Virus record (IMG/VR): IMGVR_UViG_3300046059_000013
Direction: 5' to 3' (one strand)
Origin: a virus
DNA length: 64,000 bases
Part shown: in pieces, positions 3,464 through 53,601 of the stretch
Position numbering within the stretch: the first letter of the stretch is position 1
Layout of the letters: each line of letters opens with the position of its first letter
The notes under the pieces: generated by a model
Database searches by the model: none
What the model saw: the letters and a program-made list of their open reading frames with translations, nothing else
Told to the model about the DNA's origin: nothing
Translations under genes and position numbers: made by a program

Positions 3464-6262
3464 TCATGGAATGGTCAGTTTGACGATTGGCGGTGGTCCA
3501 GCCGGAATAATGTGATTATTGCTTATATTTTCGTCATTATAAATTGAATCTAATACATTTTGATCTGACCTCATCCTGATGTTTGACTGGGTGGCGCTAT
3601 GGTTGTTAGCTTCGATGGTCACCTTAGCTTTAACCTTGTTGCTGACGTTGTCGCTAACGCTGATTTTTTCTACTCTAGCATACCAGTCGAAGATGTCACC
3701 TGCTGACCAATTCGAGGAGGGCACGATTGTAGTAGTGTTTCCGTCGGAGCCGTCAGAATCGTCCACGTATTCTAAAACAATATTACCACTCGAATCAACA
3801 GTAACACTATTATTACTATTACTGCTTCCCTCTGCAAAATTAATTAGTAAACCGGCTTGGTTTTCCGTCGCTACAGAACCCCTGAAACGCATCTCAACAA
3901 CCGTGTTGTTCGGCACCTCCAGCCGACCACTACTAAGGTTATCATTCAAATTAAACTCCAACGAATTATAAAAGTCAAAAGCTTCAGAACTAGTTCTAAA
4001 GGGGTTCCATATAGAATCTTTGTCGTAGGCTCGATAAGAAACGGACTTACCGCTCGTTTTCTTTGCCTGCTCGTACGGATTCACCACACCATCACTCACT
4101 CCCGGACTCGGGTACGAACCGCTCAAGTCCCCACCCGCAGACTGACCCTCCCCAATAAACTCGCTGTTCAGATTCCGCGAACCAACCGTTTCAACGTGAC
4201 CCCGATTGTCCGTGCTGACCTGGTCAATAACATTCGCCCCGCCTACGTTCTCCGAATCACTACCCGTACTCGCATGAGCAAGACCCGCGCTGTTTTGTGA
4301 AAGGTCCGTGCCAGCCGTGACTTCCAGATTATCGCTGTTCACGCGAATACCATTCGCCGTGTTCACACTAACAGCAACGTTGTTGCCTAGGCTCGTCGAG
4401 CCTCCACCGGCAAGACCGCTTCCCGCCGTCACTCCAAACTGGGCAGCATCAACTGTAATCGTACCGTCTTCAGTCCCAGTACCCCCACTAATGCTGATTC
4501 CACCACTCCCCGAAAGCGTATCAGCATACGCAAGAACCCGATGATTCTGGTTCACGTTCGACACCATCAACCCCACGCTGTCATCCCAAACCAGAGCGCG
4601 GGTCCGATTGGTCGCTTCACGGTTATTGAAGCTGAGCGTGTGAATCGAATGAATGTCGTTCTCGTTCATGTTCAGGTCGCCGCCGATGCTCCTGCTGAAG
4701 TCGAGCGTGAGAGAAGTACCCAGATTGGTGCTTCCGCCGCCCGTTAGGTCTGTGCCAGCGTTAACCTGGAACTCTTTCGCCTTGAGTCCAGTTGAAACCT
4801 GTATTAGGCCTGTCCCGGCTAGAACTTCCAGCCGGTCGTTCCCATCCACTCGAATGCCGTTGTCGATGTTGACTTGGAAATTATTGCCCCCATCCTCGGA
4901 AAGAGCCCTCCCAGCAATACTTTGCGGGTTCACATCGAGTGTGCGACTCGACGTAAGGTCCCCCCCGCCCGTGAGTCCATTCCCACCCGTGATGCTCACG
5001 CTCGAATGGTCAACGTGCTCGCTACTGGAAACATTCGACAAGTCCCCATGGTCAACACTCGTAGAACCACCAAGACTCACCCCGTTCCCCGCCACGGTCA
5101 CACTCTCGTTCTGGAGCCTGCCCTGCGGAATGTAACCAGCGCTACTATTCCAAATAACGGTCCCGTTGTCCCCAATATCGCCGCGCACGTCGACCGGGTG
5201 ACTCGGCGGCAACGTCGTACCGCCCACGATGATGCTAGCGCCGAACGCTTGGTCGGAACTCCATTTTAGGCTATCGCTCTCATCTACACCAATCGTGCGG
5301 TCCGAGGTGAGGTTCCCGATGCTGTTGATGCCCGTGCCACCGGAAAGACTGCGACCCGCATGAACGGCATCACCCGTGCTTGTAGCCTGCTGGAGATTTG
5401 TGACCTTGTTCGAGTTCGCGTCCAAGTCTGTGACCAGTTGCCCGCTGAACGTCACATCCCCCGGAAGCGTAACCTCCCCACTCGACCCACGCCCCACAAC
5501 ACCATTGTTAGCGTCGCGGTCGCGGTCCCGCAACAGTTCAATAGGGTCCGTGCCATCCGGGTCAACCTTCAACGCCTTCCCGTCAACCCAAATCCCGCCC
5601 GCTCGACCGGACTCGTCCCCGGTGCTGATGCGGCGAGCAATCGGGTCCGACAGGTCTTCAACGTGCACCGTGCTCCCGCTTTCATTCGTGACCTGGAGCT
5701 CGGCGCTCGAATCGTTATCGTTGTCACGAAGCCAGAACCGGAACGTGTCGCCCGTGTTTTCGTCGTTGAGTTGAACGTAGGGCTCGCTCCGTGAGAGGAG
5801 CACCGTGTCACCTTCGAACTTGGCGTTCCCGGTGTCCGTAGCTGTGAACGAGCTGGCTTCAACGTTGACCTTGATTTGAACCGTTTCGTCCCGCAGGTCC
5901 GTCACGTTGTTGACGCTGTTGCTCCCCGCGTCCAGCTCGTACAGCTTGATGGAATCGCTGTTTGTGGGGGCGCCGCTGGTTTCGAGTTCGATGTCGCCGT
6001 CGGGCTCGAGCCACACGTGCGTGGTCGAGTTCGAGGAAACGGTTTGCGTGAACGTGGTGTCCGAGGGGTCGCCGACGAGTCTGCCGTCGACGATGGCTTT
6101 CCCGTCTCGGATGTTGATGTCCAGGCCGTTGTAGGTGAGTTTGTATCCTTCGATGTGCCTGTTCTTGATGCTGAGGAGGCCTTCGAGGTGCTCTGCGAGT
6201 TCTTGGGCGGTAATCTCGGTGCCCGCGGTTGGGTGGGACGAAAACGCACTATACACCGCCAT
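3464..6262 (-). CDS. Long tail fibre / receptor-binding protein
   Basis: Gly/Ser/Thr-rich with repeated (A/G)GxGL(T/A)GGG and NGIRV..LEV.AGT units; follows the baseplate genes. Start taken at MAVYSAF. Confidence 0.8.
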   Translation of the reverse strand: MAVYSAFSSHPTAGTEITAQELAEHLEGLLSIKNRHIEGYKLTYNGLDINIRDGKAIVDGRLVGDPSDTTFTQTVSSNSTTHVWLEPDGDIELETSGAPTNSDSIKLYELDAGSNSVNNVTDLRDETVQIKVNVEASSFTATDTGNAKFEGDTVLLSRSEPYVQLNDENTGDTFRFWLRDNDNDSSAELQVTNESGSTVHVEDLSDPIARRISTGDESGRAGGIWVDGKALKVDPDGTDPIELLRDRDRDANNGVVGRGSSGEVTLPGDVTFSGQLVTDLDANSNKVTNLQQATSTGDAVHAGRSLSGGTGINSIGNLTSDRTIGVDESDSLKWSSDQAFGASIIVGGTTLPPSHPVDVRGDIGDNGTVIWNSSAGYIPQGRLQNESVTVAGNGVSLGGSTSVDHGDLSNVSSSEHVDHSSVSITGGNGLTGGGDLTSSRTLDVNPQSIAGRALSEDGGNNFQVNIDNGIRVDGNDRLEVLAGTGLIQVSTGLKAKEFQVNAGTDLTGGGSTNLGTSLTLDFSRSIGGDLNMNENDIHSIHTLSFNNREATNRTRALVWDDSVGLMVSNVNQNHRVLAYADTLSGSGGISISGGTGTEDGTITVDAAQFGVTAGSGLAGGGSTSLGNNVAVSVNTANGIRVNSDNLEVTAGTDLSQNSAGLAHASTGSDSENVGGANVIDQVSTDNRGHVETVGSRNLNSEFIGEGQSAGGDLSGSYPSPGVSDGVVNPYEQAKKTSGKSVSYRAYDKDSIWNPFRTSSEAFDFYNSLEFNLNDNLSSGRLEVPNNTVVEMRFRGSVATENQAGLLINFAEGSSNSNNSVTVDSSGNIVLEYVDDSDGSDGNTTTIVPSSNWSAGDIFDWYARVEKISVSDNVSNKVKAKVTIEANNHSATQSNIRMRSDQNVLDSIYNDENISNNHIIPAGPPPIVKLTIP

Positions 6263-6386
6263 GTTTATCGCTCGAGGGACTCCCGCTCTTTGGGTGGGCG
6301 GGAATTGAGCGTAGTTCGGGTCGCAGTCTACATAAGGGTGTTGTTTGCATATTGCCTGTTCCACCGAGAGGGCATCGGGACTTTAG

Positions 6387-6597
6387 CCTAGGGGAGTAAA
6401 TTCGGGAAACGTTGATATGGTGGAGGGTGCTTTGTTCGCTGAGCGGGATGCCCCCGGGCCGGGGGTCTCTGTAAAGAAGTTCCCGGTTTCCAACACCCTC
6501 CCGCAGGGTGGAACCCGACACCAGGCCGCAAGGCCGGTCGGAGAAAGCCCCACCCCCGAACATGGGGAGAAGGTCACCACACAGGGCTTATGAAGGA
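6387..6597 (+). ncRNA. Candidate stand-alone TnpB omegaRNA / non-autonomous IS605 derivative
   Basis: 6545-6577 AAGCCCCACCC..TGGGGAGAAGGTCAC matches the right end at 53357-53390. Hairpin-rich non-coding gap with an upstream GAAACGTTGATA promoter-like motif. The left boundary is a guess. Confidence 0.55.
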
Positions 6598-6615
6598 CCG
6601 GAAGCGCTGTGGGTT

Positions 6616-8133
6616 TTAGCTGCCGAACACGTCGCCGCTATCGTACTCAGCAACATCCTCATCCCACTCAACCTTGCAATCGTCAAAGTAAAGCGTGAGC
6701 CCGTCCGAGCCCGGGACCCCGTTTTGCGTGGCCTCAAACTCGTACACATGGTCCTCCTCCAACTCCTCCGTAAAGCCGAGCGTTTCCCAACTGGTCGCGG
6801 AGCTCGTGCCTGAAGCCTCGTTAACGAGCGTCGAATCTGTCACGTCCCGCAACCCCAAGCGAGCTTGCTCACCGCCTGAGCCGCCTGTGCGAGCCCGCAA
6901 GCTCACGCTCCACTCCGTAGTGCTGGACGGGTTAAACAACTGCTTCAAACCCTGGTCCCCCGTAGTGGTGCCGCTCGTCACCACTTTGGCACTAATGTCC
7001 CCATGGTCCACGATGGACGTCTCACTCGAAAACGACGCCCCCGCCCCCGTGTTCGCATCCCACTCCGGCGGCTCACCATCGCTGGGATAATCTTCGTAAC
7101 TGGCATTATCAAGCAGGTTCCCAGACCCGTACTCCGCCGTCGAAATCAGCGTGACAATCCCCTTCACACCGCCCGCCGTAACCCGGTTCAACAGCTTCTC
7201 GATGCTGCTAAGCTCATCATCGAACGGTGACGCAAACCCGAGGCCCTCAAGCAACGGTTGCGGAATGCTGAACTCGATGCGCCGCTGACGATACGCACCA
7301 TCGTTCGGGTCCTTGTTCAACGTGACCGCAATATCCCCCTCGCTCCCGCCAAGCGCACTCTCGACGAAGCCTTGAAGCTCCGTGACCGTGACACCGCCAA
7401 TTTGCTTCGCAATCTCAAGTTTAAGGTCCACGAGCAAGCTCTCGTCACTTTGCCCCGGGTCCCGGAACACGTTCCAGAACTTGGCGGTCTTCGTGAGCGC
7501 GGGCCCGGTTTGATCCACGACAGCCTGGTATTCTCGGAGCTCGTCCCGCGAGCGCTCCCACTCGGCGAAGAACCCTTGCCGGAGCACGCGCATCAGTTTC
7601 TCCCAGTTGGAGCCGCCCACGTACAAGTCCTCCATGTCGAGGAGGTTCAAGTGCGCTATCCAGTCTTCCTTGCCGCGGGTGTTGTAGAAAATGGTGGTGT
7701 TGGCTTGGTCTGTCGTGTTCAGCGCGTTCCCGGTGAGGTCCCAGGCCTCGTCGCTGGCGATGAACCAGTCCGTGTCAATCTCGTGAAGGTGATACGGGTG
7801 GTCATCCACGTCCACATCGTTGTGGTCCTTGCTGAACTCGAGGTTGCTGTCCGCGTCCACGAAGCGCACGATGCCCGAGGCGAAGAGTTGCAGCTTGGAA
7901 TCGTTGCCAAGGTCAAACTCCAACAGGTCCGTGCGAGCGGTCGTGACCGTCCAGTCAGTAAAATCGTCAACAAGCAGGGTCTTCGTTTCAGCGGGCGGTC
8001 CGCGCGTGATGATGATTTCGCTGTTCCCTGGGTCTAGCGTGTAGTCGGTGCCGGCCCATGCTCCAACGTGGATTTGGAGTTTGTTGGTGCCGGTGTCGCC
8101 TTCGTTAAAGCGGCGGGCCTCGTATTGAGCCAT
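6616..8133 (-). CDS. Baseplate wedge-like protein with C-terminal carbohydrate-binding-like domain
   Basis: Directly after baseplate J. RVTAGGV resembles P2 gpI-type wedge proteins; NASYE...W beta-rich tail. Confidence 0.55.
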   Translation of the reverse strand: MAQYEARRFNEGDTGTNKLQIHVGAWAGTDYTLDPGNSEIIITRGPPAETKTLLVDDFTDWTVTTARTDLLEFDLGNDSKLQLFASGIVRFVDADSNLEFSKDHNDVDVDDHPYHLHEIDTDWFIASDEAWDLTGNALNTTDQANTTIFYNTRGKEDWIAHLNLLDMEDLYVGGSNWEKLMRVLRQGFFAEWERSRDELREYQAVVDQTGPALTKTAKFWNVFRDPGQSDESLLVDLKLEIAKQIGGVTVTELQGFVESALGGSEGDIAVTLNKDPNDGAYRQRRIEFSIPQPLLEGLGFASPFDDELSSIEKLLNRVTAGGVKGIVTLISTAEYGSGNLLDNASYEDYPSDGEPPEWDANTGAGASFSSETSIVDHGDISAKVVTSGTTTGDQGLKQLFNPSSTTEWSVSLRARTGGSGGEQARLGLRDVTDSTLVNEASGTSSATSWETLGFTEELEEDHVYEFEATQNGVPGSDGLTLYFDDCKVEWDEDVAEYDSGDVFGS

Positions 8134-8141
8134 GTTAAGGG

Positions 8142-8264
8142 TTAGCTCTTGTCTTCGTACGCGAACAGTTTGCGACCCGGCGGCAGGATGAGGGGCTCCC
8201 GCGTTTCCGTGACGTACGCGCTCGTGCCAAGCCGCTCCAAGAGGCTTTCCGTATCAAAGGCCAT
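8142..8264 (-). CDS. Small hypothetical protein (40 aa)
   Basis: ATG-started ORF filling the gap between two baseplate genes. Confidence 0.4.
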   Translation of the reverse strand: MAFDTESLLERLGTSAYVTETREPLILPPGRKLFAYEDKS

Positions 8265-10907: not shown

Positions 10908-10980
10908 GGCGTATCGCCTCGCGAGAGCGTAAGGGTTCTGAGGGTTTTAACAACCCGGAAAGGGCGGGGGCTTTCCACGG

Positions 10981-21535: not shown

Positions 21536-21570
21536 GGAACCATACGGCTTTAGCCGTGGGAGGATGTCAG
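21536..21570 (+). mobile_element. Orphan IS605-type right end (hairpin + GGGAGGATGTCAG)
   Basis: 30/35 identical to the reverse complement of 43602-43636, with a compensatory stem change. Confidence 0.7.
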
Positions 21571-22499
21571 TCGTCGGTGAGGAGGATGTTGCCCTCATCG
21601 CTGAGGAGGATGTTGCCCTCATCGGTGACGAAGGTGTCGGCCCCAAACTGGAAGTCCACAGTCCCCTCGTCAGCACCTTCCCCAGCCCGCATAATGAACC
21701 GACCAGCAAGGCGCTTGTCTTCAGGAGGCTGTGCGTTCCGATTCCGGCGAAGCACGACCTGCATCATGCCCGTGACCGTGGACTCGCCTTCCTGCACTCC
21801 GATGTCGGTTAAATCGCGAATGTCCTCGAGGTGATATGCGCCATCTTGCAGGCTGTGGCCGCGGTAGAAAGCGGCAAGGTCAGAAAGGAAGTCCGTGGTC
21901 TCCTCAAGCACGTCGCTCTTTGAGTAGTCGATGCTCGCGTTCGCGTTGCTGGACGGGACCTCACTTCCGTGAATGATGAGGTTCATCATCCGGGTCTCCC
22001 ACGAGATGCGCGTCTCGCTAACGAGACGATGGTTGTAGTCAATCGTGAACTCCGTGTCCTCGTCCGGCGTGTCGCCGCCGTCGAGCCACTTGATTGCATG
22101 AGGAAGCGAACGCAGAGCGTTCGTGAAAATCTCGAAGTCATAGTCCTCGGTGAAGGTGTGATTAGAACCGTTCAAAGTGCCGGAGACGCTGTTAATGGAG
22201 GAGATGTCCTTTTCGTGCACGTCGTAAACGTCCTGCGTGGACGTGTACGTGGTGGTCGTGGTGTCTTGCTTGTTCTTGGAGACGTTTTTGCCGCGTTTGC
22301 TTTTCATCGAGCGCTTGATGTTGCCTGGTTCGATTTCGATGAGGGGAACGCTTTCGCTGGACAGGTCGTCGTGGTCCACGTTCACTTCGGTGCCGTCGAC
22401 GAGGGTAAGGGGGAGTTTGTCCCCGTTTTGCATTTGCACGGGGTCGGCTTTGTCGTGGAGGAACTCGCCGAGCGCTTTGATGGCGTTCGCCGTGACCAT
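21567..22499 (-). CDS. Tail terminator/completion-like protein with inserted Ig-like domain
   Basis: Immediately upstream of the sheath; central beta-rich insert (GSNHTFTEDYDF...PDEDTEFTIDY). Confidence 0.5.
   Translation of the reverse strand: MVTANAIKALGEFLHDKADPVQMQNGDKLPLTLVDGTEVNVDHDDLSSESVPLIEIEPGNIKRSMKSKRGKNVSKNKQDTTTTTYTSTQDVYDVHEKDISSINSVSGTLNGSNHTFTEDYDFEIFTNALRSLPHAIKWLDGGDTPDEDTEFTIDYNHRLVSETRISWETRMMNLIIHGSEVPSSNANASIDYSKSDVLEETTDFLSDLAAFYRGHSLQDGAYHLEDIRDLTDIGVQEGESTVTGMMQVVLRRNRNAQPPEDKRLAGRFIMRAGEGADEGTVDFQFGADTFVTDEGNILLSDEGNILLTDD
21578..21625. repeat. 24-nt tandem duplication (DEGNILL(S/T) x2)
   Basis: TGAGGAGGATGTTGCCCTCATCG(C/G) twice. Confidence 0.95.
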
Positions 22500-22591
22500 C
22501 TGGTTCGTGGTTCTTGCTTCGAGCGTTAAAACCCAGCGATAAGCGCCCGGAAGCCAAACCCTTAACCATGGACGGTTTCCTGGCCTGGCAG

Positions 22592-30960: not shown

Positions 30961-31036
30961 GGCAAGCGTTTAAGCGCCAAGGGTTTACAAGCTTTGGAAA
31001 GGGTGAGGCGCCTTTGCTCTCTGGTTCTTGCACGTG

Positions 31037-42190: not shown

Positions 42191-43582
42191 GTGGCTTCCT
42201 CCCCGGCCTTCACGCCGGGGCTTCCTTGTTCATTCACGAGCACCAACCCCCTGAGTGGGTTTGCAACCTCTCGTGTCCAAAGGCGTTGATTCCCCACAGC
42301 CCGTGGGTACTGGTTCGTCGTTGACTTCAAGTTTCTTGATGCCCCGTTGCCGAATCTCACGCGCCGCGTTCTGGTCGCGACCCATCGTGAGCCCGCACTC
42401 AGGGCAATCATGCTCGCGCTGCGACAACGGTTTCGGGCTCCGATGCCCGCACCGGTGACAATCGCTCGTCGTGTGCTTGGCGTTCACGCGGACAAGATGT
42501 CCGCCGTGCTCTTCAAGCTTGTACTCCAAGAACCGGAACAGGGTCCCCCACGCGGCATCATGCACGCTTTGGGCGCGGGAGCCTTGGGTGAGTCCCGTGA
42601 GGTTGTCCTCGACGGCGACCACCTGGTACTCCTCGGCCAGGTACCGTGCGACCTTGTGAAGGTAGTCCCTGCGCTGGTTCTTGATTGTGCGATGCAGTTT
42701 GGCAACCTGTTCGCGTTGCTTGTGCCAATTGTTGCTGCCTTGTTCCTTGCGGGACAAGTGTCGTTGTTCTCTCTGAAGCTTCTGCAAGGACTGTTCGAGG
42801 TGACGAGGGTTGGGAATCGTGTCCCCGTTGCTGAGGGTTAACAACTCCGTGAGGCCCGCGTCCACGCCCATCACGCCGCCTTCGGCCTGGGGCTTGGCGA
42901 GGTTCTCCTCGGGCACGTCGAAGGTGATCAATGCCCACCAGTCGCCGTGTCGGTCTTCTTTTACCGTGCATGTTTTTGCCTTGCAGTTTTCATCCAGCCA
43001 CGGCGGCTTGTCCTCGTGGAACGCTCGAACCCATCCAAGCTTGGACAAGTACACCTCGCCATCCCGGTACTTAAACGAGCCGTGTCCACTATTCCGGGAT
43101 TGGGGATACGTCATCGAGCGGTACGCTGCGCGTCCCTTGTAGCGCGGGTACTCGTGGTTGGTGTCGGGGTTGAAGAAGTTCTGGAAGGCTCGGTCCAGGC
43201 GCTTCACCACGTTTTGCAAGACCTGCGCGGGCGGGTCCTGAAACCGTGGATGGTCCTGCTTGAATTGAACCAATTGGGCCTGTTGCTCGGTTTTGGAGAT
43301 GCTTTCTCCGTACTCTTTCCACAGGAGTTCTCGATGTTCAAGGCACAAGTTGTACAGTGTCCGACATAGGCACAGCGTCCAGCCCAACTCCTCCTGCTGG
43401 TCTTGCGAAGGGTACAATCGGAGTTTTAGGGTGCGTTTGGGCATTGGGCGTCGTGCGGATATACGCAAGGGGGTTGTGGGGTTTGGGTCTTTTGGTCAGA
43501 GTGTGCGTGGTGCCATGCTCCTTGTTCCGACCCCTTCGATTCATCCCCAACCTAAAGAACAGGAACCCTTTTGACGGAAGAG
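42191..43582 (-). mobile_element. IS605-family element, tnpB only (IS-1)
   Basis: Right end CCCCGGC..GCCGGGGAGGAAGCCAC. Left end TTAA|CTCTTCC...TTTAGGTTGGGGATGAATCG resembles the left end of IS-3. Confidence 0.75.
42230..43444 (-). CDS. tnpB: TnpB RNA-guided nuclease
   Basis: RuvC D (GVDAG), E (AVED), D (RDQNAA); CxxC zinc ribbon. Confidence 0.95.
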   Translation of the reverse strand: MPKRTLKLRLYPSQDQQEELGWTLCLCRTLYNLCLEHRELLWKEYGESISKTEQQAQLVQFKQDHPRFQDPPAQVLQNVVKRLDRAFQNFFNPDTNHEYPRYKGRAAYRSMTYPQSRNSGHGSFKYRDGEVYLSKLGWVRAFHEDKPPWLDENCKAKTCTVKEDRHGDWWALITFDVPEENLAKPQAEGGVMGVDAGLTELLTLSNGDTIPNPRHLEQSLQKLQREQRHLSRKEQGSNNWHKQREQVAKLHRTIKNQRRDYLHKVARYLAEEYQVVAVEDNLTGLTQGSRAQSVHDAAWGTLFRFLEYKLEEHGGHLVRVNAKHTTSDCHRCGHRSPKPLSQREHDCPECGLTMGRDQNAAREIRQRGIKKLEVNDEPVPTGCGESTPLDTRGCKPTQGVGARE

Positions 43583-43800
43583 TTAAACCCATCGCCCCGA
43601 ACTGACATCCTCCCACGACTTAAGTCGTGGGGTTCCACGGTCACAGACCGTGCCCCCGACTCCGGCAGGTTCCCGTCGTCGGCGGTTTCCTTGGCGGCTT
43701 CAAGTTCTTGCTCGGCGGCTTGAACGTGTTCGAGAGCTTCCTCGTTCACGCTCCCGGGCCTTTGGTGAAGACGTGTTGCTCGTCGCAACGAGGACACCAC
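43552..43800 (-). CDS. Small protein whose C-terminus runs through the orphan right end
   Basis: Helical N-terminus, then EPHDLSRGRMS (typical tnpB-end translation). Confidence 0.45.
   Translation of the reverse strand: MVSSLRRATRLHQRPGSVNEEALEHVQAAEQELEAAKETADDGNLPESGARSVTVEPHDLSRGRMSVRGDGFNSSVKRVPVL
43602..43636 (-). mobile_element. Orphan IS605-type right end
   Basis: GGAACCCCACGAC-TTAA-GTCGTGGGAGGATGTCAG with no tnpB upstream. Confidence 0.75.
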
Positions 43801-48531: not shown

Positions 48532-49850
48532 GTAAACTACCCGTCCCGAGCTTGAGCGGGCTCGGAACGGGCTTTGCCTGTGTTCTCCCCCTCTAACGAC
48601 GCATCATGAGTGGCGTCGCACGAGAAACACTCGTTCGGGGTCATCGTTCCAGACGTTAAGGCCAGTTTACCGTGGCCCGTGCCCACGGACGACTTTTGGT
48701 CCATGGACACAAGGTACTTGTACCCGATTGACTTAGCAGCGTTGTAGTCCCGGTCGTTCTCGTACCCGCACGCCTGGCACGAAAACCAACGGTCCTCAAG
48801 GTTCTCTTTGCTGGTGTGCCCGCACCGGCTGCACGTGCGCGAAGTGTTCACGGGGTTCACCTGTTCAACCTGGATACCCAAGGCTTGGGCTTTGTACTCT
48901 ACGTACTCCACGAGTTGCCGGAACGCCCACTCGTGGTAGCGTTTCCCGCCTTGCAATTGGTCGCGGATGTTCGTGAGGTCCTCGAACGCGATTACGTCCA
49001 CGCCTTGCTCGGCGGCGTGGTCTACAAGGCGTCGGCTCACCACGTGCAGGTGGTGTTGGTTCCAGCGGGCCTCGCGACTGCTTAAGCGTTCAAGGGTGCA
49101 GTGGGCGCTTTGCGTGCCTGTTTGTTGGAGGCTGGCGCGCGTTTTCTCGTATTCTTCCCTGCGGTGGTTCAGCGGGCCGCCGGTGTGGAAGTGGGCGGTG
49201 CTGGTGGTGGCGAGGTTTTCGATGCCGAGGTCCACGCCCAAGACCGTGGGGTGTTGGGGCGTCTCTGCATCGGTTGTCTCGCGCTTCATGACGACGTGCA
49301 GCCACCAGTCGCCGTCCCGGTGGTGCAGCGTGGCGCCACCAGGCTCGTAGTCCTCGCTTAACAGGTAGTCGCCGTGCGGGGTTCCTTCGGGTTTGTTGGA
49401 GAGGTGGAGTTGGGCTTGGATTCTTCCGTTTGTGGTGGCTAGGCTTACTGTTTTGTTTTGGAGTTGAATTGTGTAGCAGCGTTGGTCGTAGTTCACGGTT
49501 GCACTCGTGAACCTGGGCTTGCCGGGGTTGTGGCCTTGGCGGCGGCGTTCCACGCAAGCTTTGAGGGCTTCTGCCGCTGCGCTGCGAGCCTGTGTCACGT
49601 GGTTGGCGTGGAGGTCTGAGCTGGTTTTGATGGGGTGGTAGGTGGCGTCGTGGAGTTCCGACTCGCGTGCCTCCAGGTTGCTGTTGTCGTTCCAGCCTTC
49701 GTCCACGACGCGGTTTGCTGCCGCTCGGTACTGGTCCAGCGTGTCCCAGAGGTCGTCTTTGGCGTCGCTGGGGACGGTGAGTCGGATTCGGACGGTGCGA
49801 CGTGTCTCTGCCACCAGAACACTCATGGTGGTGGGCCTACATGGTTCCTT
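48532..49850 (-). mobile_element. IS1341-type element (IS-2); left end not resolved
   Basis: Right end AAAGCCCGTTCCGAGC...GCTCGGGACGGGTAGTTTAC. Confidence 0.7.
48537..49826 (-). CDS. tnpB: TnpB, haloarchaeal IS1341 type
   Basis: RRTVRIRL start; GVDLG, FEDL, DRDYNAA; CSRC..CQAC. Confidence 0.95.
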   Translation of the reverse strand: MSVLVAETRRTVRIRLTVPSDAKDDLWDTLDQYRAAANRVVDEGWNDNSNLEARESELHDATYHPIKTSSDLHANHVTQARSAAAEALKACVERRRQGHNPGKPRFTSATVNYDQRCYTIQLQNKTVSLATTNGRIQAQLHLSNKPEGTPHGDYLLSEDYEPGGATLHHRDGDWWLHVVMKRETTDAETPQHPTVLGVDLGIENLATTSTAHFHTGGPLNHRREEYEKTRASLQQTGTQSAHCTLERLSSREARWNQHHLHVVSRRLVDHAAEQGVDVIAFEDLTNIRDQLQGGKRYHEWAFRQLVEYVEYKAQALGIQVEQVNPVNTSRTCSRCGHTSKENLEDRWFSCQACGYENDRDYNAAKSIGYKYLVSMDQKSSVGTGHGKLALTSGTMTPNECFSCDATHDASLEGENTGKARSEPAQARDG

Positions 49851-49911
49851 TGGCCGATTCCTCTCCGACCCAACCCTAGCGGGTTGGGAAAGAGTTTCCT
49901 CGGCCGATAAG

Positions 49912-50457
49912 ATGAGCAACATGGAGAGACTTGTAGCACTCGACCTTGAAACCGGCGGCCTTGACCCCTCCGAGCACTCCATCATCGAAATAGCTGCGTA
50001 CCATCCCGAGAGCGGGGAAACGATACAGCGCCTTGTCCGCAACGAAACGTACCATGTCACGGACCAGGCGATGGACGTGCATGGATACAAGATTCGCGAC
50101 CTCGCCAGCGCAAACTACGTCGGCATCGTGGACGAGGAAGTAAAGAATTGGCTCGACGAAACCGTTGACGGGAACGCCATCGCGGTAGGAATGAACGTTT
50201 ACTTTGATTTGGCTTGTTTGGGGGAGCACATGCCGCAAACGGCGAGCAGGTTCAGCCATCGCACGCTGGATGTTACTTCCCTTCAGTTCTTCCGAGATTG
50301 TTGTAGAGGCCAGCGTCTTGGAGCATCCGCAAGCTACTTCAAGAATCACGTCTTCGAGGACGAATACACGCACTCGGCGCTTGACGACGCGAAGGTCGCG
50401 TGGAAGGTTGTCGAAGCACTCATCAGCGACGTTGACAAAGAGGTGTTTCCATCGTGA
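49912..50457 (+). CDS. DEDDh 3'-5' exonuclease
   Basis: ALDLETGG, NVYFD, HSALDD. Confidence 0.9.
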   Translation: MSNMERLVALDLETGGLDPSEHSIIEIAAYHPESGETIQRLVRNETYHVTDQAMDVHGYKIRDLASANYVGIVDEEVKNWLDETVDGNAIAVGMNVYFDLACLGEHMPQTASRFSHRTLDVTSLQFFRDCCRGQRLGASASYFKNHVFEDEYTHSALDDAKVAWKVVEALISDVDKEVFPS

Positions 50458-51524: not shown

Positions 51525-51734
51525 GCGAGAACGAGGGATTCGTGCCTACGTTGACGCTTGCGTGCCAGTCGTTTGGTTGCGAGGAGGAGACGCGCGTGAC
51601 GGATGCGCTCGAGGAGGCCACGTGGCGCTGTCCCGAACACATTAGCTTCTCCTGCGCGAAGCCCCCGCCCTTCAGGGTGGGGATGAAGCGCCCAAACACC
51701 TATACGTACAAGGGTCTTTCCATGCGGCAGAGCC

Positions 51735-52139
51735 GTGGACTACGATACGAAGTCGGGAAGCCACTCCATCTACGCTCTCCAGTACCACCTCGTGTGGTGC
51801 ACCAAGTATAGGGAACTCCTGATGCTTCCCGAGGCCCGGGATGCCCTGAAGGAGAAGATCCACGATCTGTTTGAACAGTCTGGCATAGACATCCTCAACA
51901 TTGAGGCGGATGCCGACCACGTGCACGTTCTCTTCCGAGGAACGCCGACGGTGACGCTGTCCCGGGTCGTCAACAAGATGAAGGGGGCCACGAGCAAACA
52001 CCTTCGGTCGCAGTTCCCAGAGCTGGGTGCAAGGGATCACCTCTGGAGTCCTGCCTACTTCCTAGCTACGACGGGGCAGGTCACGCTGGACCGGTTGATG
52101 GAGTATGTGGACGAGCACGCCGAGGAGCGTGAAGCCTAG
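51735..52139 (+). CDS. tnpA: TnpA Y1 HUH transposase
   Basis: YHLVWCTKYR, DHVHVL, LWSPAYF. Confidence 0.95.
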   Translation: MDYDTKSGSHSIYALQYHLVWCTKYRELLMLPEARDALKEKIHDLFEQSGIDILNIEADADHVHVLFRGTPTVTLSRVVNKMKGATSKHLRSQFPELGARDHLWSPAYFLATTGQVTLDRLMEYVDEHAEEREA

Positions 52140-53350
52140 TGCCCATGCGCACCCTAGAACTCCGGTTGTATCCGTCCCAGGACCAGCACGAGGCGATGGG
52201 GCAAACGCTGGGCTTGTGTCGGATGCTCTACAATCTCTGCAAGGAGCACCGCGAACTCGCCTACCGGGAGTACGGGGAGAGCGTGTCCTGGTATGAGCAG
52301 AAGCGACAGTTGGTTCAACTCAAGAAGGACCACCCTATGTTCCAGGACGTGCATAGCCAAGTGCTCCAGAATGTGACCGAGCGCGTGGACACCGCGTTCC
52401 AGGCGTTCTTCGACGGTCGCAACGACTACCCAAACTGGAAGAGCCGCAGCGACTACCGCTCCTTCACGTACCCGCAGGAGGGCGGGTTCCGGTACCAGGA
52501 TGGCGAAGTGTACCTGTCGAAGATTGGGTGGGTGCGAGCCTTCCACGAAGACAAACCACCCTGGTACGACCCCGACACCTGCACACCCAAGACCTGCACG
52601 GTGCGCGAGGAACGGTTCGGGGACTGGTGGGCAAGCATCACGTTCGACGTGCCCGAGGAGAATGTGGTGCGTGAGCCCGCGGACCCGGGCCTCGTGGGCC
52701 TCGACGCGGGCCTCACCACGCTGGCCACGTTGAGCGATGGCACCAAGATCACGAATCCACGCCACCTCAAGGAGTCCCAGGAACGCCTCGCCAAGGCGCG
52801 ACGGGACCTGTCACGCAAAGAACGAGGAAGCAACAACTGGCATAAGCAGAGGCAGCGCGTAGCGAAGCTCGAACGCAGGGCCGCCCGCAAACGTCAAGAC
52901 CACTTGCACAAGGTGTCTCGACACCTGGCCGAGTCCTACACGTGCGTCGCCGTCGAGGGAAACCTAGCGGGACTCACCCAATCAGAGGACCACGCCCAAG
53001 CCGTTCACGACGCCGCCTGGGGCACCCTGTTCGAGTTCCTGGAGTACAAGCTCGATGAACACGGAGGCCGGCTCGTTCGCCTAGAGGGCGAGAATCAGGC
53101 CTACAGCACCAAGGACTGTAGTGAGTGCGGGTACCGCAACCACGATTTGTCCTTGGAGGACCGATCATGGACCTGCCCCGACTGCGGGGCAATGCACGAT
53201 CGGGACATCAACGCGGCCAGGAACCTAGAGCAACGCGCACGCACCAAGCTCCAAGACGAAGGAACCGACGTACCCATGGACCGTGGGGAATCAACGCCTT
53301 TGGACACGAGAGGTTGCAAACCCACTCAGGGGGTTGGTGCTCGTGAATGA
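52139..53350 (+). CDS. tnpB: TnpB RNA-guided nuclease
   Basis: GLDAG, AVEG, RDINAA; CSEC..CPDC. Confidence 0.95.
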   Translation: MPMRTLELRLYPSQDQHEAMGQTLGLCRMLYNLCKEHRELAYREYGESVSWYEQKRQLVQLKKDHPMFQDVHSQVLQNVTERVDTAFQAFFDGRNDYPNWKSRSDYRSFTYPQEGGFRYQDGEVYLSKIGWVRAFHEDKPPWYDPDTCTPKTCTVREERFGDWWASITFDVPEENVVREPADPGLVGLDAGLTTLATLSDGTKITNPRHLKESQERLAKARRDLSRKERGSNNWHKQRQRVAKLERRAARKRQDHLHKVSRHLAESYTCVAVEGNLAGLTQSEDHAQAVHDAAWGTLFEFLEYKLDEHGGRLVRLEGENQAYSTKDCSECGYRNHDLSLEDRSWTCPDCGAMHDRDINAARNLEQRARTKLQDEGTDVPMDRGESTPLDTRGCKPTQGVGARE

Positions 53351-53601
53351 ACAAGGAAGCCCCACCCTTCTAGGGTGGGGAGGAGGTCACCGAGTTTGTT
53401 CCTGCTCCGGGCACGAGCAAGGCCGAAAGGCTGGGTTGCAAGTGTGAGCGCGTGGAAGGCGTGGCGAATGGGCCTCTCTTTGTTGCTTTGGGTTGCAAGA
53501 TGCATTCGAGTCAAGCTGAAGATTGACTTCTTCTCCGGTCTCTTCTTACGGGTCGGAGAGACCCGCAAAGTTGATGCATTAACAACCGCCTGGCAACAAG
53601 G

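Follow-up and report, generated by a model that had tools for sequence, protein, structure and literature searches.

The 353-nucleotide (nt) gap at 6263–6615 of a 64-kb stretch of viral DNA (IMG/VR record IMGVR_UViG_3300046059_000013, referred to here as the window) is likely to carry, on its + strand, a tnpB-less derivative of an IS200/IS605 insertion sequence with the layout of a PATE, now partly decayed to a remnant. PATEs (palindrome-associated transposable elements) encode no protein and carry, close to their ends, palindromes that resemble those found in IS605-type transposons (Dyall-Smith et al., 2011; PMC3119063). The window is part of a 91-kb contig and possesses three tnpB genes that encode OrfB_IS605 and TNB domains and belong to the elements IS-1 (42230–43468, minus strand), IS-2 (48537–50090, minus strand), and IS-3 (52139–53350, + strand). 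The PATE layout is read from two end palindromes in the same orientation, approximately 100 nt apart, with no gene between them. A first-pass annotation of this DNA had described a stand-alone omegaRNA-like unit in the gap; its account of the origin stands, as the unit derives from an omegaRNA-coding right end whose terminus is closest to that of IS-3, whereas the analysis gave no support to the promoter, functional scaffold, and regulatory target that it proposed.

The right-end terminal module of the unit, which is also the terminal module of an omegaRNA, lies at 6545–6577 (+) in a degenerate form, AAGCCCC-hairpin-GGGGAGAAGGTCAC, and reads AAGCCCCACCC, CCGAACA, and TGGGGAGAAGGTCAC in succession. 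The first of these segments (6545–6555) is identical to the IS-3 right end at 53357–53367 (11/11), where the letters are AAGCCCCACCC, TTCTAGGG, and TGGGGAGGAGGTCAC; the last (6563–6577) shares 14 of 15 positions with IS-3 53376–53390, or 15 of 16 if the next C is counted. The match of 11/11 and 15/16 on either side of the loop, reported in the first-pass annotation, was thus reproduced, and all the strings listed there were found in their places within one base. The right end of IS-1 has the same flanks as the gap and IS-3, with a stem between them that is different but compensated.

The composite motif AAGCCCC-N7-15-GGGGAGRARGYCAC occurs at three sites in the window, the gap and the right ends of IS-3 and IS-1, against a chance expectation from base composition of 7e-6 per window. 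Thirty dinucleotide shuffles yielded no instance of it, not even when each half was permitted one substitution, and the module is therefore taken as real and not as a chance resemblance. Among species-representative genomes, the motif is present at no fewer than 120 loci (at least 120), mostly in Archaea with a few in bacteria, and the matches listed include Methanothrix, Halogranum, Haloglomus, Natrinema, Thermoplasmata, Methanomethylicia, and Woesearchaeota; the viral contigs gave one match. Where a tnpB is present, the motif sits over or just past its 3' end, and for this reason it is regarded as the right-end terminus together with the last module of the omegaRNA scaffold. The motif is common to a large TnpB group with upstream scaffolds that differ considerably, and AAGCCCC-hairpin-GGGGAGGAGGTCAC is a handy marker of the right ends of this mainly archaeal group. 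In intact elements of the class, the terminus constitutes the TnpA cleavage-proximal end and also the stretch of omegaRNA scaffold that immediately precedes the guide. Judged by its letters, 6545–6577 can be assigned with certainty to this conserved IS200/IS605 right-end terminus, as far as the identity of the terminal module is concerned. The gap unit has the conserved hairpin flanks and the 10-nt tail to ...GTCAC of the class, and does not have the overlap with a tnpB 3' end: neither a TnpB C-terminus nor a remnant of one is present in the three + strand frames of the gap, and the closest tnpB is 36 kb off.

A different origin, in which the hairpins are native regulatory structures of the late operon (a processing or termination signal of the minus strand) that resemble insertion-sequence ends by convergence, is extremely improbable. 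Both flanking genes are on the minus strand, another orphan right end at 21536–21571 is likewise located between minus-strand genes, and the minus strand of the gap folds about as well as the + strand, all of which would suit such a signal. It would leave unexplained a 33-nt composite match of the rarity given above, in a motif that also terminates two tnpB genes of the window and the loci counted in other genomes, and the terminator scan returned no candidate site on either strand.

The boundaries of the unit are best approached through IS-3, an IS605-type insertion that extends from 51646 to 53390 with TTAG before its left end and ...GGTCAC at its right end, and whose Y1 tnpA (51735–52139) is intact by Pfam. 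The deletion of 51646–53390 joins ...CACATTAG to CGAGTTTG... and restores an 86-amino-acid (aa) open reading frame (ORF) with CxxC and CKC motifs, which is not restored when the right boundary is moved by one base in either direction. This restoration sets the transposon-adjacent motif (TAM) of IS-3 as TTAG, its end as ...GGTCAC, and the start of its guide as the next base. By analogy with this verified end, the gap unit would end at 6577, a boundary that is well supported, and the guide position would begin at 6578.

The second palindrome lies approximately 100 nt upstream of the right-end module on the same strand, at 6447–6465 (GATG-CCCCCG-GGC-CGGGGG), within a left-end-type module at 6438–6466 (+) of the form GCTGAGCGGGATG-CCCCCG-GGC-CGGGGG. 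Four sites in the window have the signature [AG]A[AT]GCCCC with a stem of at least 6 bp after it, namely 6447, the left end of IS-3 (51658), and the right ends of IS-3 and IS-1, while 0.21 sites are expected from shuffles. The 5' flank of the palindrome agrees with the IS-3 left end in 12 of 14 positions and with the pre-hairpin region of the right end at locus L048 in 16 of 17. The palindrome is better read as an insertion-sequence end than as the first hairpin of an omegaRNA. Two of the traits of PATEs are found in the unit: IS605-like palindromes stand near both ends (6447–6465 and, in degenerate form, 6548–6567), and its length of 143–191 nt is too short for a transposase. None of its ORFs has a family match: the four small ORFs of the gap (104, 65, 58, and 56 aa) have no Pfam match, and those of 104 and 58 aa have none in PHROGs, in agreement with the earlier description of a gap of about 350 nt without a credible ORF.

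Nested or tandem insertions of IS605-type elements are common, and the two palindromes might accordingly be scars of two independent right ends, an older tail-less one at 6447–6465 and a later adjacent insertion at 6545–6577. The GCTGAGCGGGATGCCCC that precedes the first palindrome is the string with the 16/17 match to L048 and resembles the ...GAAGCGGGAAGCCCC consensus of right ends, an orphan right end (43602–43636) immediately precedes IS-1, and mobile elements often insert into PATEs and IS605-type transposons (PMC3119063). Nevertheless, TCTCTGTAAAG comes after the first palindrome, where no vestige of a AGGAGGTCAC tail is seen, and the likeness of this palindrome to a right end does not discriminate, because a single element should have left and right palindromes that are alike, as IS-3 does. 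Two scars are accordingly given little credence.

For the derivative of a single element, the left boundary has two candidates, 6387 and 6435, and the TAMs of both are putative. The maximal unit (6387–6577, +; 191 nt) runs from TTAG on the left to the ...GGTCAC terminus on the right. Its candidate TAM at 6383–6386 is the tetranucleotide verified for IS-3 through the restored 86-aa ORF, so TTAG as a type of TAM, suggested in the first-pass annotation, fits; its role as the insertion TAM at this position does not follow, as the right-end module has this single TTAG in its 280 nt of upstream sequence, an occurrence with about even odds by chance (an estimate from composition), and the TTAG lies 60 nt from the palindrome, compared with 12 nt in IS-3. 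Instead, the register of IS-3, in which TTAG precedes GAAG-CCCC, is occupied in the gap by a TAM-like TTTG at 6431–6434 (+), exactly 12 nt before GATG-CCCC and sharing three of four positions with TTAG. This alternative gives the minimal unit of 143 nt, with its left end at 6435.

The region upstream of the terminal module was compared with known omegaRNA scaffolds through R1, a covariance model built from 19 aligned right ends of the IS-1/IS-3 class. It consists of a first hairpin, the GGGAAUUAACGCC linker, a closing stem, a variable hairpin, a terminal hairpin, and a tail; RNAalifold recovered the first hairpin, the long-range closing stem, and the terminal hairpin from the 19 sequences, with compensatory changes in seven of 17 pairs. 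R1 aligned end to end with 6448–6577 (+) at 31.5 bits (E about 2e-7), the third-best match in the window behind the right ends of IS-3 (85 bits) and IS-1 (82 bits). The terminal part of the gap alone scored 15.3 bits, and the 6451–6465 hairpin alone 8.6 bits, with a nearly equal score on the opposite strand. For comparison, true class members from other genomes scored 84–108 bits, right ends of unrelated classes 30–37 bits, and chance matches in coding DNA 14–24 bits. At several columns, the gap departs from a base that all 19 members share. A full scaffold suited to the IS-3 TnpB, as implied in the first-pass annotation, is thus not supported, and parts of it are clearly absent, the gap having 31.5 bits against 82–108, no linker, and a 5-bp stem.

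Three hairpins are present where they had been described: CCCCCGG/CCGGGGG at 6451–6457/6459–6465, CACCC(T)/(A)GGGTG at 6494–6499/6505–6510, and GGCC-GCAA-GGCC at 6524–6535. The last two (6494–6510 and 6524–6535, the latter with the GCAA loop) lie in the internal segment at 6467–6544 (+). UCUC at 6466–6469 and GAGA at 6541–6544 form a possible closing stem, which R1 aligns while treating the rest as an insertion. A local alignment of the middle of the gap with the IS-3 scaffold was matched by 423 of 500 shuffles. Folding energy showed no excess stability on either strand (z of −0.3 for the gap); this comparison is uninformative, since the genuine IS-3 and IS-1 omegaRNA regions are without excess as well (z of about −0.7). 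No Rfam family reached its gathering score anywhere in the window, including HgcC, a family that contains a tetraloop like that of right ends (PMC4615843), and over 6200–6700 only chance-level matches were found at E up to 10. A second model, R2, which represents a halophile right-end class, gave 11 bits, all from the terminal hairpin, and the resemblances of TAGGAGTAA and CCCAAC were dropped.

Several features of the copy point to decay and not to a maintained RNA, as judged from the letters of the module. The terminal stem is 5 bp with a 10-nt loop; its 5' arm, CCCCACCC, agrees with the IS-3 arm at every position, and the 3' arm is without the inner GGG, so that three inner pairs are gone. 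Set against 72 distinct terminal hairpins of other genomes, this stem ranks at the bottom: 62 of them reach at least 7 bp (one mismatch allowed) and three have stems of 5 bp or fewer, two of which (L038 and L050) resemble, by eye, chance matches in coding DNA. The subterminal stem of 7–9 bp that covariation maintains in the class is absent from the gap unit, where R1 marks the inner pairs as non-canonical. The tail has an A at a position that is G in all 19 class members, the G of GGGGAGGA. In addition, the nine-base conserved linker (the GGGAAUUAACGCC region) is deleted in the gap alignment. The reading of decay follows from the short stem, the substituted tail, and the absent linker together, and this decay makes a passive remnant the likelier reading, ahead of a functional guide.

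A working stand-alone omegaRNA gene would have its promoter at 6404–6417, a start near 6440, and a scaffold of about 130 nt that serves the TnpB of IS-3 or IS-1 in trans. Its guide at 6578–6596 would direct the cleavage of element-free genomes or the silencing of the fibre leader, with TTAG plus CACACAGGGCTTATGA as the putative target. Such a gene is unlikely, albeit the most plausible of the alternatives weighed here. The AT-rich GAAACGTTGATAT lies approximately 25–30 nt before the start of the R1 match (6448), the tail agrees with that of IS-3 in nine of 10 positions, and three tnpB genes are available in the same genome. Elsewhere, stand-alone omegaRNAs act in trans (PMC10691335), an RNA derived from a PATE is expressed in Halobacterium (PMC4615843), and the phage contig L001 (167 kb) has an omegaRNA-like unit without tnpB that is preceded by a clear TTGACT-17-TATAAA promoter-like site. 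These points are opposed by the terminal stem reduced to 5 bp, the missing GGGAAUUAACGCC linker, and the unmatched invariant columns, including the tail G, as well as by an R1 score of 31.5 bits against 82–85 for IS-1 and IS-3. Furthermore, TTGATA is a poor TATA box, the sense-overlapping tnpB RNAs (sotRNAs) of Halobacterium were reported to have no classical TFB recognition element (BRE) and TATA box upstream (PMC4615843), and the guide has no target beyond its own flank in the window or the viral contigs.

The promoter-like GGGAAACGTTGATA, located at 6404–6417 (from 6403 in the first-pass annotation), is at best a loose look-alike of BRE and TATA elements when it is judged against the haloarchaeal promoter consensus. 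The claim that the unit possesses its own promoter is thus reduced to a weak AT-rich match, one that would fall outside the unit if the left end is 6435. A scan of both strands for sigma-70 promoters and terminators gave nothing, the scan being of a bacterial type that does not extend to archaeal promoters. The flank at the guide position, by analogy with the ...GGTCAC end of IS-3, is CACACAGGGCTTATGAAGG (6578–6596, +); it has no second match in the window at up to three mismatches, and the empty-site string of TTAG plus guide is absent from the viral contigs. The guide had been taken to be antisense to a TATA-like sequence upstream of the fibre gene. This relation is explained by the geometry of insertion, because in any element of this kind the 3' flank serves as the guide and is thus antisense to the spacer in which the element lies; CCTTCATAAG, the supposed TATA box, is no obvious promoter of the fibre gene, as it is approximately 320 nt upstream of the fibre ATG.

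Strings similar to AAACCCTTAA were observed near gene starts at 8135–8144, 22556–22565, 30977–30986, 10929–10938, and 6332–6341, and such a string stands directly before the ATG at 8133 (minus strand) and at 22568 (+ strand). As a shared viral promoter, these sites showed no window-wide enrichment over shuffles.

In L001, which is AT-rich, the tnpB-less unit occupies 155–300 on the minus strand and ends 29 nt before an ORF that resembles the start of tnpB, while a TNB domain is encoded at the opposite end of the contig. A similar unit is present in L100, with the same 5' module.

The interpretation of the gap unit as a PATE-like remnant has several observations weighing against it. R1 rates it no better than right ends from unrelated classes, and upstream of the last ~55 nt (~6525) it has no sequence similarity to known right ends. 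The call of a left end rests on a short palindrome, and its match to the IS-3 left end was reached by 60 of 500 shuffles and is not significant when taken alone. The collections contain no relatives of the virus, and hence neither boundary is backed by an empty site. A second copy was found neither in the window nor in 146 loci by blastn, nor in four genomes, nor in 401 genomes of the class of Halogranum, where short matches were at chance level, nor in metagenome and viral contigs searched with exact and loosened terminal patterns; the ten metagenome matches of these patterns belong to unrelated right-end families.

Motif-bearing loci without a nearby tnpB are frequent in other genomes. In 44 of 70 genome loci with the motif, a TnpB-like ORF is absent within 1.7 kb upstream; the 70 loci are those with at least 1.3 kb upstream, TnpB-like ORFs were called with a profile hidden Markov model built from the collected TnpBs, and a handful of the 44 are chance matches in genes. 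Near-identical, multi-copy PATE-like units were observed in Halogranum amylolyticum (L004, L017, L021, and L058) and similarly in the uncultured archaeon ASS_A1 (L018, L028, L031, L072, and L093). In both families, approximately 200 nt are common upstream and no TnpB-like ORF is encoded within 1.7 kb. The terminal module was also observed in a CRISPR array of an uncultured archaeon (L056, 3326–4248) composed of at least 14 repeats of GTTTAAAGCAGACATGAGATGGATTGAAAG, in which one spacer (3906–3942) was acquired from a TnpB element, its letters being those of the conserved right-end/omegaRNA terminal module, GTGGAAGCCCC-hairpin-GGGGAGGAGGTCAC.

Haloarchaea and bacteria are already known to carry PATEs and stand-alone omegaRNAs, and the gap unit is one further example of that kind. 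It resembles haloarchaeal PATEs in being short and protein-less, in having no inverted terminal repeats, in its IS605-like end palindromes, and in the heterogeneous sequence outside the palindromes (PMC3119063). Unlike PATEs, it is single-copy and resides in a virus genome and not in a chromosome, its right palindrome is decayed, and its boundaries are putative (PMC3119063). Deletion events between the two palindromes gave rise to some PATEs, and in PATEs the stretch that separates the element start from the palindrome is longer at the 5' end (PMC3119063). The PATE-derived intergenic non-coding RNA VNG_R0052 of Halobacterium salinarum, in which a partial left end is fused to a right end, is transcribed as a 99-nt RNA, its overexpression alters growth, and RNAs of this type are predicted to be common in haloarchaea (Gomes-Filho et al., 2015; PMC4615843). 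The gap unit is similarly intergenic and tnpB-less, with part of a left end and a hairpin like that of a right end. The right-end hairpin of VNG_R0052 is the structure that ends sotRNAs, now called omegaRNAs, and has a UUCA-type tetraloop, compared with the 10-nt loop predicted for the gap unit.

PATE-like elements often encode omegaRNAs (Meers et al., 2023; PMC10055086), and stand-alone omegaRNAs function in trans with compatible effectors, according to the work of Altae-Tran et al. in the form summarised in PMC10691335. As far as that summary describes the stand-alone OMEGA loci, the gap unit shares with them the absence of an effector or transposase, the presence of effector-carrying copies in the same genome, and a guide defined by the flank; those loci have an intact scaffold and were tested in trans, whereas the gap unit is without conserved scaffold positions and a role in trans would be expected by analogy. 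It is like IS-3 in the terminal module (11/11 and 14/15) and the left-end-type palindrome (12/14). The gap unit has no genes, and no similarity in the ~80-nt omegaRNA core that IS-1 and IS-3 have in common.

The parent of the remnant was probably an IS-3-like element. The remnant could have arrived as a mini-element mobilised by a TnpA of the Y1 type, for instance the intact IS-3 enzyme (51735–52139), or a full copy could have been trimmed in place by deletion between its two similar palindromes. The intergenic landing site would explain why the insertion was tolerated. A + strand transcript, if made, would be an omegaRNA-like RNA with the 3' flank as its guide, and a compatible TnpB might then cut, in trans, the element-free allele (TAM plus CACACAGG...) of a co-infecting relative.

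This last step has a wider form, in which the tnpB-less units near 6.5, 21.5, and 43.6 kb are a dispersed guide set that arms the three viral TnpBs in trans, or that tunes the late tail genes by antisense. We hold this to be improbable. If true, guides taken from the flanks would cut co-infecting relatives that are without the insertion, leading to super-infection competition or homing; orphan units that arm viral TnpBs against rival viruses would raise the importance of the finding, and the gap copy looks degenerate. The units near 21.5 and 43.6 kb are tnpB-less, right-end-like hairpins at 21536–21571 (+) and 43602–43689 (minus strand) that are 86% alike and have the tail GGGAGGATGTCAG in both. 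The former is located in a gap between two minus-strand genes, and the latter, just upstream of IS-1, scored 29.4 bits with R1. Weaker right-end candidates near 34.7 and 17.7 kb received no R1 score at E up to 10.

The PATE-like remnant adds a protein-less IS605 derivative to the structural-gene block of an archaeal-type tailed virus. It suggests that viral genomes, like the chromosomes of haloarchaea, are places where such elements settle and decay, in this case beside three tnpB genes and one tnpA. For annotation purposes, the 353-nt gap is accounted for and should not be labelled a gene.

On either side of the gap lies a late tail gene, both of them read from the minus strand, and the unit is thus antisense to its neighbours, as described earlier. 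The upstream late gene (6616–8133, minus strand) encodes an acidic protein of 505 aa with no assigned family, its stop codon abuts the gap, and a search of a 5.8-billion-protein collection returned only the protein itself. The downstream late gene (3464–6262, minus strand) encodes 932 aa from the in-frame ATG at 6262, is fibre-like by position, and likewise has no assigned family. The bounds of the gap are set at 6263–6615 because this ATG is the most plausible start of the downstream gene.

The window has a G+C content of ~60%, and its large ORFs encode acidic proteins with isoelectric points of about 4.2–4.7. Its proteins include a baseplate-J/wedge protein, a prohead protease fusion, and an intein-bearing family B DNA polymerase. 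The virus has no relatives in the phage collection (DNA and protein), the viral contigs, or the 5.8-billion-protein collection. The closest TnpB relative, with 64.5% identity, is from a Thermoplasmata metagenome-assembled genome (locus L067). The source is probably a tailed virus of a halophilic archaeon, an assignment based on the acidic proteome, this closest TnpB relative, and the mostly archaeal distribution of the end motif.

Within the window, IS-1 (42217–42310, minus strand) and IS-3 (53270–53363, + strand) share a 94-nt omegaRNA-coding stretch with 97% identity, while the remaining sequence of their tnpB genes aligns piecewise at 75–78% and their terminal hairpins differ by compensated changes. 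The difference between the 97% of the module and the 75–78% elsewhere in the tnpB genes suggests that IS-1 and IS-3 have exchanged the RNA module or that gene conversion has acted on it.

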